5,740 nucleotides of DNA from contig JALVPN010000063.1 in NCBI GenBank assembly GCA_027031765.1, positions 1 through 5,740 of the forward strand, read 5' to 3'. Positions 2 through 5,740 of the stretch are shown here, piece after piece; the stretch's first letter is position 1; each line of letters starts with the position of its first letter. This DNA comes from Promethearchaeota archaeon (GTDB taxonomy: Archaea; Asgardarchaeota; Thorarchaeia; Thorarchaeales; Thorarchaeaceae). A program made the position numbers and the translations under genes. Under the pieces are notes generated by a model, which saw only the letters and a program-made list of their open reading frames with translations, searched no databases and had not been told where the DNA came from.

Positions 2-751
2 TACCTCACTTGTGGTATCATCGGGCTCTCCGTCCTTGCGGTCTCCATCTTCCTGCCGGTCGCCACCGGCCCACACACAGACACCACTCCCCAGCGCATG
101 CCTCGAAACGGGGCACAGGACACCCCACGGGTACCAGTGACAGCTGTCCTGCGCAGAGACGTCCTCGTGATCTGTGCCGCACAGGCTGCGACCTTCTTCC
201 TTTACGGCGCCTACGAGTTCTTTTTCCCACTGCTGTGGTCAGAGGAGCTCGGCGCCCCGGAATGGATGGCCGGCCCGGCCCTCACCCTCCTCACCATCAC
301 ACTGCTCCTCGCCGGCCCGGCATTCGGCAGGGCATCCGACCGCACCGGCCGTGTGCCGTTCATAGTCACGGGCCTGGTATCACTGTGCATCCTTGTAGCC
401 GTGGCCTCCACTGTCCATGACATGCTCGTCCAGTACGTGCTCGTAGTGCCAATCGGTCTCTCGATCGTGGCCACAGACTCGTCCACATCGCCCCTCGTCA
501 CAGAACGGGTCGCCCCGTCCCGACGCGGCACCGCCCTCGGACTCCTCAGCACCGTCATGGACATCGGCCACTCCACCGGCCCCCTGGTCACAGGGCTCCT
601 CCTCGCCCTGGGCGGACACAGCTACTTCTTCGCCTTCGCAGTCGCAGGCCTGTGCCTCCTGCTCGTGCCAGCGCTCGTGCTCACAGTCCTTGGCAGGACG
701 GACGAGTACCGGTATCCCGACGGTACTGCTGCAGACAAGAGTACTGTGTGA
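2..751 (+). CDS. Major facilitator superfamily (MFS) transporter, C-terminal half; 5'-truncated by the window edge
   Basis: The frame of the 98..751 ORF is open back to position 2 (YLTCGIIGLSVLAVSIFLPVATG...), so ATG98 is probably not the true start. There are about 6-7 hydrophobic helices, MFS motif A-like GRASDRTGR at nt 326-352, and the typical late-helix pattern VTERVAPSRRGTALGLLSTVMDIGHSTGPLVTGLL. Stop TGA at 749-751. Substrate cannot be inferred. Confidence 0.9.
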   Translation, partial: YLTCGIIGLSVLAVSIFLPVATGPHTDTTPQRMPRNGAQDTPRVPVTAVLRRDVLVICAAQAATFFLYGAYEFFFPLLWSEELGAPEWMAGPALTLLTITLLLAGPAFGRASDRTGRVPFIVTGLVSLCILVAVASTVHDMLVQYVLVVPIGLSIVATDSSTSPLVTERVAPSRRGTALGLLSTVMDIGHSTGPLVTGLLLALGGHSYFFAFAVAGLCLLLVPALVLTVLGRTDEYRYPDGTAADKSTV

Positions 752-791: not shown

Positions 792-2504
792 TCATACGTC
801 GATGATGCCCTGATATCCCGTCCCCTCGACACTGTCCAGCCACTCGTCCACCCCGCGATATGCGTCCCACCGGCCATGGTATGAGTTCCAGTCCTCAATG
901 AATGTCGAGAGCTTCCACCTGCCGTAGAGCGCACCACCCAGCAGGTGCACCTGGGCAGTGGGGCACAGACCCCGTACAGTCCTTGCAAGCCCCGCGGTCT
1001 CGCCATCCGGGACCCGGATCCGGAACATTAACCTGTCCTCCGAGACCTGTTCAACGTGTGTCATGGGGAGGTCTTCGGCAAGGGCGGCCAGCCCGTACGC
1101 CTCATCACCATGCCTGCATACCACGAGTATGTCTTCCGAGAGGCCCGCATGGTGGAGTTCGTAGACGTGCCCTATGACACCACTCTCACGGAACACGTTC
1201 AGCCACTTGCAAATGGTCTCGGTGCGACAGCCGATTGTCTGCCTCAGCTCACGCACCGTTGTCGCACCGCCCTGGAACTCGCACAGCACTCTTGTCCCAA
1301 TACTGTCAATGTACCGTAACGGTGTTGGCGGGTCCGGCAGGTCGAGCAGCGAGGGCTGTGCCCTCCCGTCCTCTACGAGGTGTGCTGTCCGCAGATAGAG
1401 CACTGTCCAGTCGATAGACCACCCGCCGATCCCGGGGACGTAGTGGTGGAATGAGTAGTGTGTCTTCACGCGTTCGCGTGTCATGGCCTGCACGCTGACC
1501 CCTTCACTCTCTGCATGAGCGATGGCACGGTCCACAGCATGGGAGTTGTCCTTGTTGTCGGGTATGGCGAGGGTGGCCATAAGCCCTCCTCCTCCGCTGA
1601 CTATCTCCCGTGACGAGTAGAGGAATGGGCACTTGGCGACCAGGTCACTTGCAGACACGGTGCTGCCCTCAGTGGGCGTGATGAGCAGGTGTCGGACCTG
1701 TACGCTCAGTGCCCGCAACGACAGTCTTTCAAACACTCTGAGCTGGCCCCGGGCAATGAGCCTCTGTAGGAGCCTGCCGACCCAGTTGGTGCTCATCCCT
1801 GTTTCCTGAGCAATGCGTTCCCTTACGGTGCCATTGGAGGCGAGGACTGCTCCCAGTACCCGCACCTCGGAAGTGTTCAGTCGGATGACATAGCCCCTCA
1901 TGTAGTCGGCCAGCAACCGCACCCACTCGTGTACTGACAGTCTGACCCCTGCCCTCGCGAACCGGATCACCATCCCGACGACGCCGTCAATGTACTCCTC
2001 CTCACCCATGGCGTGGAGCTGTCTGAAGATCTCCGGGCCGTCGTATACTGCCCCCGTTGGAGATGGTACCTGCTTGCTCGATGCCCGCCACCGTTGCCTC
2101 CACTCCTCCAGCAGGGGCCCGCCAAGGCACTGCTCCCCGAAGGCACATGCAATGTCGCTGACAACGACCGCATCAACACTGTCTGACGAGAGCATGAGCC
2201 TCAGTGCCTCCCTGTTCAGGAGTGCCCTGACAAGCGGGGCCTCCGTGCCCACAATGAACGGCAGGTGTACGGTGTTCCCATCAATTGCGACCTGTGTGTC
2301 CCAGGCCTCGGGCCAGTCAATGGGCCTTTCACCGTCCACCACGACACTCATCGATGTCAGCTCGTGGGACAGCCCAAAGCGTTCAGAGCTCCCATACACA
2401 CACTCTCGCCACAGCTGCACGAGTGCCTGCCGGGCCTGCTCATCAGCATAGTGACCGCTACTGGTGACCATTGTAGATGCACCTGTCTCATTTATCCTCT
2501 CCAT
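792..2504 (-). CDS. Large multidomain protein, putative transcriptional regulator: N-terminal ~200 aa helical domain + 2x (Lrp/AsnC-like wHTH + ferredoxin-like/RAM-like domain)
   Basis: 570 aa open frame; 559 aa from ATG2471, which has an AGGTG ribosome-binding-like motif 8 nt upstream (+ strand 2480-2484) and is the more likely start. wHTH-like segment 1, aa ~209-268: LNTSEVRVLGAVLASNGTVRERIAQETGMSTNWVGRLLQRLIARGQLRVFERLSLRAL. wHTH-like segment 2, aa ~399-455: IDSIGTRVLCEFQGGATTVRELRQTIGCRTETICKWLNVFRESGVIGHVYELHHAGL. Each is followed by an alternating beta/alpha segment and an aromatic motif (FHHYVPGIGGWSIDW; FIEDWNSYHGRW). The CDS is well supported; the product call is pattern-based. Confidence 0.7.
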   Translation of the reverse strand: MERINETGASTMVTSSGHYADEQARQALVQLWRECVYGSSERFGLSHELTSMSVVVDGERPIDWPEAWDTQVAIDGNTVHLPFIVGTEAPLVRALLNREALRLMLSSDSVDAVVVSDIACAFGEQCLGGPLLEEWRQRWRASSKQVPSPTGAVYDGPEIFRQLHAMGEEEYIDGVVGMVIRFARAGVRLSVHEWVRLLADYMRGYVIRLNTSEVRVLGAVLASNGTVRERIAQETGMSTNWVGRLLQRLIARGQLRVFERLSLRALSVQVRHLLITPTEGSTVSASDLVAKCPFLYSSREIVSGGGGLMATLAIPDNKDNSHAVDRAIAHAESEGVSVQAMTRERVKTHYSFHHYVPGIGGWSIDWTVLYLRTAHLVEDGRAQPSLLDLPDPPTPLRYIDSIGTRVLCEFQGGATTVRELRQTIGCRTETICKWLNVFRESGVIGHVYELHHAGLSEDILVVCRHGDEAYGLAALAEDLPMTHVEQVSEDRLMFRIRVPDGETAGLARTVRGLCPTAQVHLLGGALYGRWKLSTFIEDWNSYHGRWDAYRGVDEWLDSVEGTGYQGIIDV

Positions 2505-3201
2505 GTTCTTGGGCCTTCCAGATCCGTGTCATCTCAAGTACCGCGTTGCCAAGCTTGGTAATCCTCACCTTCTTGGTGTTCCCTACCTTCTCGGTCTCGA
2601 CATATCCCCAGTCATGAAGCGTCGAAACATGGTCTGATGTCGCTGACATCCCGAGGCGTACCGTCTTCGCGAGCCTTCCAATCGATGGGCACCACTCGTA
2701 GTTTCCCCGCTCGTCCTTCAAAGAACTGAGCGATTCGAGCACTCTCTTCTTCGGCGGGCTCAGCTGTTCCCTTGTTATGGGGAACACATCGACCACATCG
2801 ATGGCGTGACCTTTCCCGTCCTCCTTCACAAGGTGTATCACCGACTTGGTAAAGGCTGCTGCAGCATAGAGTGCTGCGCTCATGATGCGTGTCCCAAGTG
2901 ACGGGTTGAACGCAAACTCGACCTCCTCGTCATTGTCCTGTCCTTCCTGCTCCAACATGTATGTGTTGACGGTCTTCACCGCTTTGAACAGCACATCGTC
3001 AAATCTCCACGGTTCGACCTGCACTATTTCAATGGGCATGTGCCCCTTCTCCAGTATCTCGTCCCTGATCCTCTCTGCATCGTTGTGTGTCTCTCTCGTG
3101 CACATGATCACAAGCGCATCGGCCCCTCGTCTGTTCATTACGAAAGCAATCCTGCCCTGCTCGTTCCGACCCAAGGTGGCAATCATCACTTTCATGGGCA
3201 C
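2488..3201 (-). CDS. csa3: Csa3-family CRISPR-associated CARF + winged-helix transcriptional regulator
   Basis: N-terminal CARF strand-1 motif MKVMIATLG; CARF motif-II-like strand FAFNPSLGTRIMS (aa 96-108; from memory Sulfolobus Csa3 has DLTMGMRM); C-terminal wHTH LSPPKKRVLESL...SIGRLAKTVRLGMSATSDHVSTLHDWGYVETEKVGNTKKVRITKLGNAVL. The size (235-237 aa) and CRISPR-proximal location fit. Start is GTG3201 (GGAG 5 nt upstream) or ATG3195. The stop lies 17 nt inside the maximal downstream ORF, or 16 nt before ATG2471, which suggests an operon. Confidence 0.8.
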   Translation of the reverse strand: MPMKVMIATLGRNEQGRIAFVMNRRGADALVIMCTRETHNDAERIRDEILEKGHMPIEIVQVEPWRFDDVLFKAVKTVNTYMLEQEGQDNDEEVEFAFNPSLGTRIMSAALYAAAAFTKSVIHLVKEDGKGHAIDVVDVFPITREQLSPPKKRVLESLSSLKDERGNYEWCPSIGRLAKTVRLGMSATSDHVSTLHDWGYVETEKVGNTKKVRITKLGNAVLEMTRIWKAQEHGEDK

Positions 3202-3244
3202 GCATTCTCCGCCAGTCCTGTCCCGGTGTATGTGATGTCCCGCC

Positions 3245-3250
3245 TATAAA
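3245..3250 (-). promoter_or_regulatory. Putative archaeal TATA box (TTTATA) for the csa3-like operon
   Basis: The minus strand reads GAGTTTATAGG, matching archaeal TTTAWA. It lies ~45 nt upstream of the csa3-like start and is a rare AT-rich patch in a GC-rich intergenic region. Confidence 0.5.
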
Positions 3251-3462
3251 CTCGCGCTGCGGCCCTGCGGTCGTAGTATTCTGGCGGGCGTGGCACACCC
3301 CGGCCTCACCTCTGGGTACCACGACGCACCGGATGCACGGCTCTCCTATGAACAGGTTTCCGCGACTGCTGTCCCCAACAGCGTGCAGCCGCAACAACCC
3401 CTCTCCTGGGCCCCCTGCCGGCCCCCTAGGCCACCCGGCGGCAAGCGCGTCGTCGTGACTAC

Positions 3463-3468
3463 ATTAAT
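3463..3468 (+). promoter_or_regulatory. Possible TATA-like element (ATTAAT) for the plus-strand CARF gene
   Basis: AT-rich hexamer 42 nt before ATG3511, mirroring the spacing on the csa3 side. It is an imperfect consensus with no clear BRE. Confidence 0.25.
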
Positions 3469-3510
3469 CTCACTGGTGTTGCCGTGCTCCCGACAGGTGT
3501 ACATCAGTCC

Positions 3511-4398
3511 ATGACCCACCTTCGGGATGTGGGCCCGTCAGATGGCAGGACCCGGTACAGAGTGCTCATCGGGTCTGGCGCTGCGGTGTCACAGGGCACA
3601 ACGGAGTACCGCTACCCCGCGGTCGCGCCACGGAGCTCTCAGGCCCTGTCCTCTACAGCTGCCATAGCAGAGCTCCTTGGCCCCTTCGACTCGCTCGTGG
3701 TCTTCACGTCTGGCTGCACACCACATGTCCTGCAGGAGGCCGACGCAGCACGGCTTGCAGGCCACATCCGTGACTGGTCTGTCATCAGGACCAGCCCCGT
3801 ACACGGTCCTTCTCCACTCGTGGACGTCCGCAAGACCATCAGTGCTCTCGAAGACATGGTGACCCCTGACAGGCACCTGCAAGTTGTGGTCGACCTGACC
3901 GGCACTGACGGATATATGACACTTGTCCTCATCGCAGCACTGTCGTTCATGGCCGCCCGCGCTCTCGCCTCCATCGAGCGTGTGGTCCACGCCGTGCCCG
4001 CCAGGACGCCGGGCCAGGCCCTCATCTCTGACATGACCGACACCGCCCTCCTCCTCGAGTGGGTCCTCTGTACCACTGCCCTCTCCTCCCCCAGCCCCGT
4101 TCACCGGCTCGCATCCCTGTTCCGCCGTTTCGCTGACCAGCTCTCATTCTCTCTACCGTCCAGCCTCCGCCTGTCCCACATCGCAGACACCCTCGACCAT
4201 CTCGCAACCCAGTGGCACCCCTCTCATACCACCCAGCCCACACCAGACACTGACACACTTCTCACACTCCTCACTCACGCACGGACGGACGTGGGCCCCG
4301 AAACACCCCTCTCACTCGTCATCGCACATCTCATTGACTCTCTACAACATGACCCATCACCAGCACGACCGGAGGATGACCACCAGTGCAGCAAATGA
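3511..4398 (+). CDS. Divergent Csx1/TM1812 (DxTHG)-family CARF-domain protein lacking a recognisable HEPN effector domain; possibly degenerate
   Basis: 295 aa from ATG3511 (AGGTG at 3495-3499); 304 aa from GTG3484. The order of motifs matches TM1812/Csx1-type CARF domains: RVLIGSG..TTEYRY..STAAIAELLGPFDSLVVFTS..VVVDLTGTDGYMTLVLIAALSF..IERVVHA..GQALISDMTDTALLLEW. The canonical DxTHG position reads DLTGTDG (nt 3892-3912). No RxxxxH motif is seen, and the C-terminal ~100 aa are H/T/P/L/S-rich. Confidence 0.65.
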   Translation: MTHLRDVGPSDGRTRYRVLIGSGAAVSQGTTEYRYPAVAPRSSQALSSTAAIAELLGPFDSLVVFTSGCTPHVLQEADAARLAGHIRDWSVIRTSPVHGPSPLVDVRKTISALEDMVTPDRHLQVVVDLTGTDGYMTLVLIAALSFMAARALASIERVVHAVPARTPGQALISDMTDTALLLEWVLCTTALSSPSPVHRLASLFRRFADQLSFSLPSSLRLSHIADTLDHLATQWHPSHTTQPTPDTDTLLTLLTHARTDVGPETPLSLVIAHLIDSLQHDPSPARPEDDHQCSK

Positions 4399-4485
4399 CC
4401 AGTGCCACAGCCCACAAGGTGACAGCCCAAAGTACGCCGCATCATGGCAGCTCTCCAGACTGCCGCCAGCAGACACACCACCACC

Positions 4486-4534
4486 TCCCACAGTCGCCCC
4501 ATGTCCCGCAGCCCATGATATGTCCCACAGTCCC
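4486..4534. repeat. Degenerate 18-19 bp tandem repeat, core TCCCRCAGYC
   Basis: TCCCACAGTC at 4486, TCCCGCAGCC at 4504 and TCCCACAGTC at 4523 (spacing 18 and 19). Confidence 0.45.
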
Positions 4535-4543
4535 GCCTCTGGG

Positions 4544-4614
4544 CCCGTAGTACGCCTTTGGATTCGTAGTACGCCCTTGAACCCGTAGTACGCCCTTGAA
4601 CCCGTAGTACGCCC
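4544..4614. repeat. 19-bp tandem repeat, ~3.7 copies, with palindromic core CGTA-G-TACG
   Basis: CCCGTAGTACGCCTTTGGA (4544-4562), TTCGTAGTACGCCCTTGAA (4563-4581), CCCGTAGTACGCCCTTGAA (4582-4600), CCCGTAGTACGCCC (4601-4614). CGTAGTACGCC is invariant in all four copies. Confidence 0.95.
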
Positions 4615-4743
4615 GTGCTGTTTCTTCTACGTCTGTGCGCCCATACAACACATGTCGATAGCGATAGCGTACACTTGGCCTGACGAGCCGGAAGACCCGC
4701 CGTGGTGACCGGCCCGTCGATGACGCTCACACGTCAACCTAGC

Positions 4744-4790
4744 GGGCCAGCTCCGGCTGGCCCTACACCTTCTTTTTTTCCCCTTTTCCT
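4744..4790 (+). terminator. Putative plus-strand terminator: 8-bp GC hairpin followed by a T-rich tract
   Basis: GGGCCAGC (4744-4751), loop TCCG, GCTGGCCC (4756-4763) form a perfect stem. A 23-nt pure pyrimidine run follows at 4768-4790, containing T7 (4773-4779) and T4 (4784-4787). Oligo-T tracts are established archaeal termination signals. Confidence 0.6.
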
Positions 4791-4874
4791 GCGGTGCAGT
4801 TCCGATCTGGCCCCACCGTGGTGCCCACGACACCGCCATGGTGTCCATGTCATCCAGTCATGACTCTGTGCCCT

Positions 4875-5740
4875 GTTTCAACCCTAGTTCTAGTCTGATT
4901 GCAACGGGTCTGTCAGGTCAATGTAACCGACCCTCTGGCCAGTTTCAACCCTAGTTCTAGTCTGATTGCAACGTCGTTCATGAGCTCAAGCCTTAACTTC
5001 ACCCGTCACGGGTTTCAACCCTAGTTCTAGTCTGATTGCAACGATTCAGGGGGACTTTGAAGGCCTGCTCCGGAAACTGTTTCAACCCTAGTTCTAGTCT
5101 GATTGCAACGGGCCGGATGGGTGATGTAGAGTTCACTTTTTACCTTCGTTTCAACCCTAGTTCTAGTCTGATTGCAACAGGAACAATGATAACGATAGTG
5201 GTGGATCGACTACTGTGTTTCAACCCTAGTTCTAGTCTGATTGCAACAAGAGGAGGGAGTTACAGCTACGGAATCTGGCACCGTTCGTTTCAACCCTAGT
5301 TCTAGTCTGATTGCAACTGGTCGCCTAGCCAGCCACCACCGACCGCCGGGGGGAGTTTCAACCCTAGTTCTAGTCTGATTGCAACAGGCTACTATGTAGT
5401 AGCCTACAGGGCCGACACCGGTGTTTCAACCCTAGTTCTAGTCTGATTGCAACCTGAACATTGTCACGGTGGACGGCAACGTCTGTCTCGGCTTCAACCC
5501 TAGTTCTAGTCTGATTGCAACACTGAACCAGTTAAGCTGCTCGGGTTTAACCCGACTACGTTTCAACCCTAGTTCTAGTCTGATTGCAACTGACACGGGT
5601 CCCGTTGGGGGAGTCCGTGACGAGGAGGGTGTTTCAACCCTAGTTCTAGTCTGATTGCAACCCACGGGTGGAACGCGATATTCCGTGAGGAAATACTGTT
5701 TCAACCCTAGTTCTAGTCTGATTGCAACCCACGGGTGGAA
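4875..5740 (-). CRISPR. CRISPR array: 13 repeats of 31 bp, 12 complete spacers (36-40 bp) plus a partial 13th; continues past the window edge
   Basis: Plus-strand repeat GTTTCAACCCTAGTTCTAGTCTGATTGCAAC starts at 4875, 4942, 5012, 5079, 5148, 5217, 5287, 5355, 5423, 5491 (variant GCTTC...), 5560, 5631 and 5698. Spacer lengths are 36,39,36,38,38,39,37,37,37,38,40,36. The reverse complement GTTGCAATCAGACTAGAACTAGGGTTGAAAC ends in the usual ..TTGAAAC handle and resembles weakly structured archaeal repeats linked to type I-A/I-B/III systems, so minus-strand transcription is inferred. The array is certain; the orientation is about 0.75. Confidence 0.98.

Follow-up and report, generated by a model that had tools for sequence, protein, structure and literature searches.

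What role do three genes play at the head of a CRISPR array, when two of them encode different CARF proteins, the third encodes a large protein with two Lrp units, and no cas gene lies between them and the array? The question is raised by a contig of a Promethearchaeota archaeon of the family Thorarchaeaceae (GenBank assembly GCA_027031765.1, contig JALVPN010000063.1, here C63), the complete 5740 nt of which constitute the window of this analysis. The three proteins are p237, a Csa3-like protein with a CARF domain and a winged helix-turn-helix (wHTH) domain; p570, a double-Lrp protein; and p304, a CARF protein without an effector domain. The favoured explanation, with a probability of about 0.55, is that the window holds a CRISPR-linked regulatory operon at the array head, in which a Csa3-like sensor of cyclic oligoadenylate (cOA) acts with an obligate Lrp-type partner and faces a decayed Csx1-like remnant. 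The original prediction, made from the letters of the window, had assigned the three proteins as CARF-wHTH, double Lrp and effector-less CARF; all three assignments hold, and the open reading frames (ORFs), the leader and the array that it described are confirmed at their positions.

A conserved pair of overlapping genes

The genes for p237 (237 aa; 2488–3201, minus strand) and p570 (570 aa; 792–2504, minus strand) overlap by 17 nt at the start of p570, and the same overlap is also present in homologous loci. Word-indexed homologue searches return almost nothing for the three proteins and are misleading; six-frame searches of genomes were used instead. Of the 85 other genomes that belong to the taxonomic family, 56 carry p570-like genes and 46 carry p237-like genes. 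The tight coupling noticed in the window is kept in 52 of the 62 p237-like matches, which have, by their coordinates, a same-strand p570-like match no more than approximately 1.7 kb away; of the other ten, five or more are situated at contig ends. Because this overlapping gene pair is conserved, the best-supported reading of p570 is that of a partner of p237. The predicted p570–p237 complex reaches a score of 0.22 versus a mark of 0.32, and is counted neither for nor against binding.

p237, a candidate cOA sensor of the Csa3 type

p237 consists of a CARF domain (approximately residues 1–135) and a wHTH (approximately residues 140–230). The Csa3 model TIGR01884 matches the protein collinearly and over the full length (E 6e-7) with 29.0 bits, below the curated cut-off of 60.2 bits; it is therefore named Csa3-like and not a member of the curated Csa3 family. 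The winged helix of DUF6293_C is detected with 28.6 bits, passing its cut-off of 27. Among the 35 homologues from related genomes that form the p237 family set, TIGR01884 is matched by all 35 (E ≤ 0.01; best 1.7e-16), HFX_2341_N and DUF6293_C by 29 each, Csa3_N by 16 and CARF_Card1 by eight. Furthermore, the family profile matches the CARF of 8bao (DUF1887/Can2-type; E 1.2e-4) and Can2 in 7bdv (E 3.4e-4), and ArsR/MarR wHTH structures match its positions 138–212.

Both canonical CARF ligand motifs are intact in p237 and conserved in the family. Motif I, IATLG (residues 7–11; 3169–3183, minus strand), retains Gly11 in 32 of the 35 homologues. Motif II, FNPSLGTRIM (residues 98–107; 2881–2910, minus strand), contains the S-x-G-T-R pattern as Ser101-Leu-Gly-Thr-Arg105, with Ser conserved in 27 homologues, Gly in 27, Thr in 25 and Arg in 21, and with the Met of the motif present in all 35. 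The Arg of motif II is replaced by Cys in eight of the 35 family members.

Csa3 proteins bind cyclic tetra-adenylate (cA4), and Csa3 motifs are present in CRISPR leaders and cas promoters (PMC8699464, PMC8844856, PMC7480081). On account of this published work and of its own CARF motifs, p237 is best read as a putative cOA sensor. It resembles Csa3a and Csa3b of the Sulfolobales type I-A systems (PDB 2WTE, 6W11, 6WXQ) in the two-domain architecture, in CARF motifs I and II, and in gene location, next to cas operons and to an array leader. Compared with these proteins, p237 has its best Pfam matches in HFX_2341_N and DUF6293_C, is linked here to types I-D, I-B and III-B and not to I-A, and is nearly always co-transcribed with a partner of 540–580 aa, whereas the cited papers mention no partner for the Sulfolobales Csa3. 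In vitro, purified Csa3a binds DNA non-specifically and independently of cA4 (PMC8699464), which in our reading would leave space for a specificity partner.

p570, a double-Lrp protein with a zincin-like domain

The AlphaFold2 model of p570 computed from a 41-sequence alignment is confident, with a predicted local distance difference test (pLDDT) of 91 and a predicted template modelling score of 0.85; an earlier model from a two-sequence alignment (pLDDT 41) is not usable. Tandem Lrp/AsnC units and their linker occupy residues 207–530 (915–1886, minus strand). In the model, each unit (residues 207–356 and 401–530) contains a helix-turn-helix (HTH) and a β-α-β-β-α-β domain, and the C-terminal tail of the protein is rich in conserved Trp. 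Residues 211–561 align with NirDL in 4czc with a Z of 15.8 in VIA-align, Foldseek reports 4ch7 with E 7e-7, and many full-length Lrp/AsnC structures give Z 6.7–7.4 to the model in VIA-align; both halves resemble ordinary Lrp/AsnC regulators too. The two halves pack like the NirD–NirL fusion (PDB 4CH7/4CZC), and in the model the Lrp units form an intramolecular NirDL-like pseudo-dimer.

The family profile agrees with this fold at the level of sequence, matching PH0061 (Lrp/AsnC) over one whole Lrp unit (E 4.8e-10) with a second HTH further along, and also matching FL11 and LrpA. The HTH models found in the family are HTH_24 in 34 of 41 members (best E 1.5e-12), HTH_AsnC-type in 22 of 41 and NirdL-like_HTH in 19 of 41; the Pfam RAM domain, AsnC_trans_reg, is not detected by sequence in the family. 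Compared with Lrp/AsnC proteins and NirDL, p570 is one chain that also bears a zincin-like N-terminal domain and a Trp-rich tail, and its gene is obligately paired with a CARF-wHTH gene, outside any haem-pathway context.

That N-terminal domain, approximately 190 aa in length (residues 17–206; 1887–2456, minus strand), had been overlooked in the original prediction, in which the two wHTH units of a double-Lrp protein were correctly recognised. It superposes on the catalytic domains of zincins, including LTA4H and aminopeptidase N of M1 and thermolysin of M4. Over the M1, M4, M3, M2, M49 and M36 families, 165–177 residues align at a root-mean-square deviation of 4.1–4.8 Å with Z 8–9.4, a range that falls in the grey zone of the tool and possibly reflects just a common arrangement; zincin families are numerous among the top 50 rows of the VIA-align comparison. 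In contrast to the zincins, p570 contains no HExxH anywhere in the protein, nor does any of the 41 homologues, and a conserved R-E-(C/A) is found instead in the helix equivalent to the HExxH helix; another helix of the domain reads D..E(F/Y)(A/G)RQ. TAF2 is an inactive copy of a zincin catalytic domain. With moderate confidence, the model points to a dead zincin-like docking domain in p570.

In a different explanation, p570 does not regulate by binding DNA but serves as an adaptor or enzyme-like protein, a catalytic or ligand-binding scaffold of Lrp fold as in NirDL/AhbAB that carries a pseudo-protease docking domain; it would act on p237 post-translationally, by sequestration or as an anti-repressor, following the logic of ImmA/IrrE without proteolysis. 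Regulators of the IrrE/ImmA type carry a zincin-like domain fused to regulatory domains; this likeness counts for the adaptor, as do the siroheme decarboxylase NirDL as the best structural match and the NirdL-like_HTH matches in the family. However, the absence of HExxH from all 41 homologues, the generic DNA-binding HTH models that match most members, above all HTH_24, and the lack of haem-pathway genes nearby stand against it, and the adaptor is considered quite unlikely.

p304, a truncated relative of Csx1

The second CARF gene is separated from p237 by a divergent intergenic region (3202–3510), the length of which, 282–309 nt, is set by the p304 start chosen. On the plus strand, p304 comprises 295 aa from the ATG at 3511 (3511–4398) or 304 aa from the GTG at 3484 (ORF 3484–4398); the ATG is the choice of the gene callers in two other assemblies. 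The guanine–cytosine (GC) fractions at its three codon positions, 0.67/0.51/0.70, are of the coding type, the genome mean being 0.63/0.45/0.70. Exhaustive phmmer against 1.8 billion representatives returns only P0005 (323 aa, E 1.6e-23) and P0006 (582 aa; L006:1905-3653), the N-terminal half of which matches p304 with E 2e-6, and further family members are recovered by genome searches. The resulting family profile (A4) matches Csx1-Crn2 (8y7g) with E 6e-16 along chain residues 3–452, spanning CARF, HTH and HEPN.

Long forms of the family (565–582 aa) contain a CARF with DITHGFR and a helical domain, after which come RNxxAH as the HEPN motif and another CARF-like domain. In the alignment, the sequences of p304 and P0005 stop behind the helical 'HTH' domain and ahead of the HEPN block, and no HEPN relic is found by tblastn downstream of p304, in the leader. 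Thus aligned, p304 is a truncated, fast-evolving descendant of a Csx1-like CARF-HTH-HEPN nuclease: its CARF and helical HTH domains are homologous to those of Csx1 and Csx1-Crn2 (PDB 8Y6Z/8Y7G; SisCsx1 6QZQ); relatives with the long form still have DITHGFR and RNxxAH, whereas p304 and P0005 lack the HEPN and have both cA4-contact motifs degenerate. Csx1-Crn2 holds cA4 by motif I (LGKG, in which K12 is essential) and motif II (TxGxR/K) (PMC11317161, from which its domain limits and motif definitions are also taken). At the aligned positions in p304, LGKG is replaced by SGAA (motif I region, 3568–3591, plus strand) and TxGxR by TGTDG (motif II region, 3892–3918, plus strand).

Because both contact motifs are degenerate, the role of signal sink or modulator that had been proposed for p304 is doubtful. 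In that explanation, p304 is a working nuclease-less CARF protein that soaks up or degrades cOA in the manner of ring nucleases of the Crn1 type, likewise composed of a CARF and a helical/HTH domain, and thereby tunes the p237 signal. The combination of a CARF and a helical domain does resemble stand-alone ring nucleases (PMC9638899); the short form is an intact ORF in two genomes, that of the window (G000) and G315, with 29% identity between the two and a coding-like codon-position GC; and the context is of type III. On the other side, both contact motifs are altered, including the one that holds the essential K12, and between the same two genomes p304 evolves much faster (29% identity) than p237 (58%) and p570 (45%). 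A sink is accordingly regarded as quite improbable, and p304 is most likely, as judged from its motifs, a decaying or repurposed remnant.

In the long forms, the second CARF-like domain follows the HEPN, carries SPLG and TGGT motifs, and gives a weak match to CARF_Card1/DUF1887. It takes the C-terminal position that Crn2 holds in Csx1-Crn2, a difference by which the long forms may represent a different kind of self-limiting Csx1 fusion. Long forms are located at L056:11926-13668, L050:3156-4850, L060:5980-7686 and L047:11309-13006, in addition to P0006. A search of the genome for Cas_APE2256 (PF09651) gives no match, and is uninformative, as all control genomes were missed too.

Genomic contexts of the pair

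Forty loci were annotated with the genome's own Cas proteins as queries and with a repeat finder; the related genomes are not independent samples, and the locus counts are descriptive. Cas genes or arrays exist within 9 kb of the pair in 17 of the 40 sampled loci. The co-occurrence of all three genes, proposed as a candidate module, extends beyond the window: context A, with a p304-like gene transcribed divergently from p237 and with p570 coming after p237, is present in six genomes from five genera, namely G000, G315, G330, G336, G318 and G324. This layout adjoins cmr1-6 in both G324 and G318; in G315, its neighbour is a type III module of which the Cas10 match is weak. Immediately beyond the p304-like gene, the window and G318 have an array; in G315, one further gene intervenes between the two. 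That intervening gene (L005:11050-12060) encodes 336 aa with a weak SAVED match, 30.4 bits compared with a cut-off of 33.

Of the five other context-A genomes, four have the long nuclease form as the divergent gene, namely G336, G318, G324 and probably G330, where it is cut by the contig end; in G315, the short P0005 occupies the divergent position and a long form is located downstream of p570. Since most relatives possess the long nuclease form, an effector belonged to the ancestral module, and what remains in the window is its decayed version. The original description of the locus as a circuit rather than an effector cassette is modified by the relatives, most of which have a full-length Csx1-like nuclease of 565–581 aa in the divergent position.

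Beyond the three-gene layout, the pair adjoins cmr1-6 in L056, L057 and L060 and a type I-B system in L048. In context B, it closes type I-D operons; 11 loci are of this kind, among them a paralogous pair on contig C139 of the same genome. In the maximum-likelihood tree of p570, the window belongs to a clade of ten loci with 100/100 support, six of which are cas-linked.

CRISPR systems elsewhere in the genome

The host metagenome-assembled genome comprises 2.95 Mb in 229 contigs, with a completeness estimate of 95%. A search of it for the TBP family gives no match and is uninformative as to the domain of life; the taxa of related protein clusters indicate an archaeon. Contig C139 ends in the same repeat as the window, in opposite orientation, beside cmr6. 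Its order is a type I-D operon (cas10d, csc2, csc1, cas3, cas6 and csa1), directly followed by the paralogous p237-like/p570-like pair, then a convergent type I-B system, the divergent type III-B cmr1-6 operon and the array into which that operon runs. The three types thus lie within one cluster of approximately 30 kb (L004, L001), and a 311-aa DUF2225/TPR-like gene is situated between the paralogous pair and cas2.

The Cas10/Cmr2 of the genome has an intact GGDD and no HD domain; a cas10 was therefore found where the original prediction had suggested looking for one, elsewhere in the genome, as a type III-B gene beside an array of the same repeat. Simultaneously, a 566-aa protein with a CARF and a Csm6-type HEPN (Cas_Cas02710, 53 bits) is encoded at C69:295-1995 (L087), the only candidate cOA-activated nuclease found in the genome. 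Because of the cyclase-type, GGDD-bearing Cas10, this CARF-HEPN protein and the candidate sensor transcription factors, the genome has the parts for cOA signalling. Two weak SAVED matches, of approximately 25 bits and just below the cut-off, are located on the 5.2-kb contig C83 (2661–2945, minus strand; 3655–3936, plus strand).

Array, leader and DNA signals

The array (4875–5740, plus strand) runs to the contig end and contains 13 copies of a 31-nt repeat that ends in ATTGCAAC, with spacers of 36–40 nt. An independently assembled contig, L002 (9281 nt), matches the window with 100% identity through the initial 4874 nt and the 12 first spacers, and has no fewer than 62 repeats. The final 12 nt of the window (5729–5740) duplicate the start of spacer 12, which L002 holds once, and the distal end of L002 is a fold-back, formed by an inverted repeat and then a reversed repeat fragment; both the duplication and the fold-back look like assembly artefacts at array ends. 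None of the 61 spacers of L002 equals the terminal spacer of C139, and contigs C63 and C139 could not be joined.

Between p304 and the array, the leader (4399–4874, plus strand, approximately 475 nt) is non-coding by GC periodicity, which is lacking there, by tblastn, and by the gene calls of other assemblies, in which no gene is placed in it. No cas ORF exists between the three genes and the array within the contig, as had been predicted. Four tandem 19-nt repeats with the core CGTAGTACGCC are located in the leader at 4544–4614 (plus strand; Tandem Repeats Finder score 114), approximately 260 nt upstream of the first CRISPR repeat. The 11-mer CGTAGTACGCC occurs six times in the 2.95-Mb genome, four of them in these tandem repeats, which form a candidate protein-binding array. 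A TATA-like TTTATAGG, read directly from the sequence, is situated at 3243–3250 (minus strand), approximately 45 nt upstream of the p237 start, and would be the promoter element of p237. The 9-mer GTCCCGCCT, which is found in both the divergent region and the leader, was rejected as a common signal, about one such occurrence being expected by chance. Rfam matches nothing in the window.

At the other end of the window, an MFS transporter gene, present by its 3' part (2–751, plus strand), is convergent with p570. In L081 (6426–7571) and L065 (2109–3380), p570 is directly followed by an MFS gene of the same strand. The only sequencing run that contains the window is a hydrothermal-vent metagenome, probably the source of the DNA; no RNA run containing it is among the listed sequencing runs.

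Proposed mechanism and its weighing

In the proposed mechanism, the GGDD-competent Cmr/Cas10 complex would produce cOA on binding target RNA. The cOA would bind the CARF dimer of p237 and alter the engagement of DNA by the wHTH. As the obligate co-regulator, p570 would add DNA contacts by its Lrp-type HTH pairs, possibly at the four 19-nt repeats of the leader, and its RAM-like domains could bring in a second, small-molecule input. Together, p237 and p570 would set the transcription of the divergent promoter, of the leader and array, and probably of the cas operons. The analysis shows the structures of the genes, their folds and homologies, how the pair and its layout with p304 are conserved, the link with cas loci and the GGDD of Cas10; we infer the binding of cOA by p237, its contact with p570, the DNA targets and the direction of regulation.

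A wider version of this mechanism is given a lower probability. Here, p237 and p570 would constitute an obligate heteromeric regulator, a so far unrecognised CRISPR-associated family governing arrays as well as type I-D, I-B and III-B loci in this archaeal lineage; its inputs would be cOA, through the CARF domain, and a metabolic or amino-acid signal, through the RAM-like domains, and the Lrp pseudo-dimer would give the DNA specificity that was missing in purified Csa3 in vitro.

Several observations weigh against a CRISPR-linked, cOA-responsive operon. The structure that p570 matches best, NirDL, belongs to an enzyme and not to a transcription factor. The identical repeat is the sole link between the array of the window and the cas contig C139. 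The tandem repeat of the leader is absent from the two related leaders checked (L005, L060), and no motif beyond chance is common to the divergent region, the leader and the cas promoters of the genome, or to the divergent regions of the six related loci. Furthermore, 23 of the 40 sampled loci have no cas gene within 9 kb. In context C, the order is reversed to p570, then p237, then a double GNAT acetyltransferase gene, without cas genes within 9 kb; in the p570 tree, the loci of this kind group into one clade (support 100/100). The context C loci are L068 (4045–7786), L069–L071, L075, L077, L080, L082 and L084, and their GNAT protein has approximately 315 aa and two GNAT domains.

Because of the GNAT clade and the 23 loci without cas genes, some clades could have a ligand other than cOA. 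For the whole family, the picture of a general regulator that has clades both within defence loci and outside them is at least partly true, and the pair is not confined to CRISPR loci. It could then be argued for the window, too, that the pair is a general, lineage-specific two-protein transcription regulator, the CARF-like domain of which senses another nucleotide or metabolite, and that its adjacency to CRISPR arises from defence-island clustering or from the regulation of non-CRISPR neighbours, perhaps the convergent MFS gene. Besides the GNAT operon and the cas-free loci, the MFS genes that adjoin p570 in the window and directly follow it in L065 and L081 agree with such a regulator. However, 17 of 40 loci near cas genes or arrays are found although cas loci make up approximately 1% of the genomes; the linkage rises to six of ten in the window's own clade; the pair is operon-terminal in 11 type I-D cases; the Csa3 model is matched by every p237-like protein of the set; and the MFS gene, being convergent in the window, is outside the operon. 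A purely general regulator is therefore held to be rather unlikely here, and the CRISPR-linked operon of a Csa3-like sensor and its Lrp-type partner is preferred. None of the outcomes that the original prediction had named as speaking against it (homologues that do not co-occur, a p570 gene normally away from CRISPR loci, a genome without cas10, or CARF proteins that bind no cyclic oligonucleotide) was found outright, and its interpretation is partly supported.

Significance

A recent survey of type III systems set transcription factors aside for later analysis (PMC11229360). The open-access literature searched contains no description of the Csa3-like/double-Lrp pair, or of the zincin-like and double-Lrp family as CRISPR-linked; the original prediction had not recognised the three-gene combination as a described module. 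What is new is an obligate partner, added to the known CRISPR regulation of the Csa3 type.

To our knowledge, infection-triggered expression of CRISPR-Cas is understood just for a few Sulfolobales Csa3 proteins. The locus also records the decay of a Csx1 nuclease into a nuclease-less, motif-less CARF protein, a caution that a stand-alone CARF protein is not always a cOA sensor or sponge. Meanwhile, p570 would extend the list of CRISPR-linked gene families and, as a partner gene tied to a Csa3-like gene at three CRISPR-Cas types, is a candidate for the missing specificity or integration factor.

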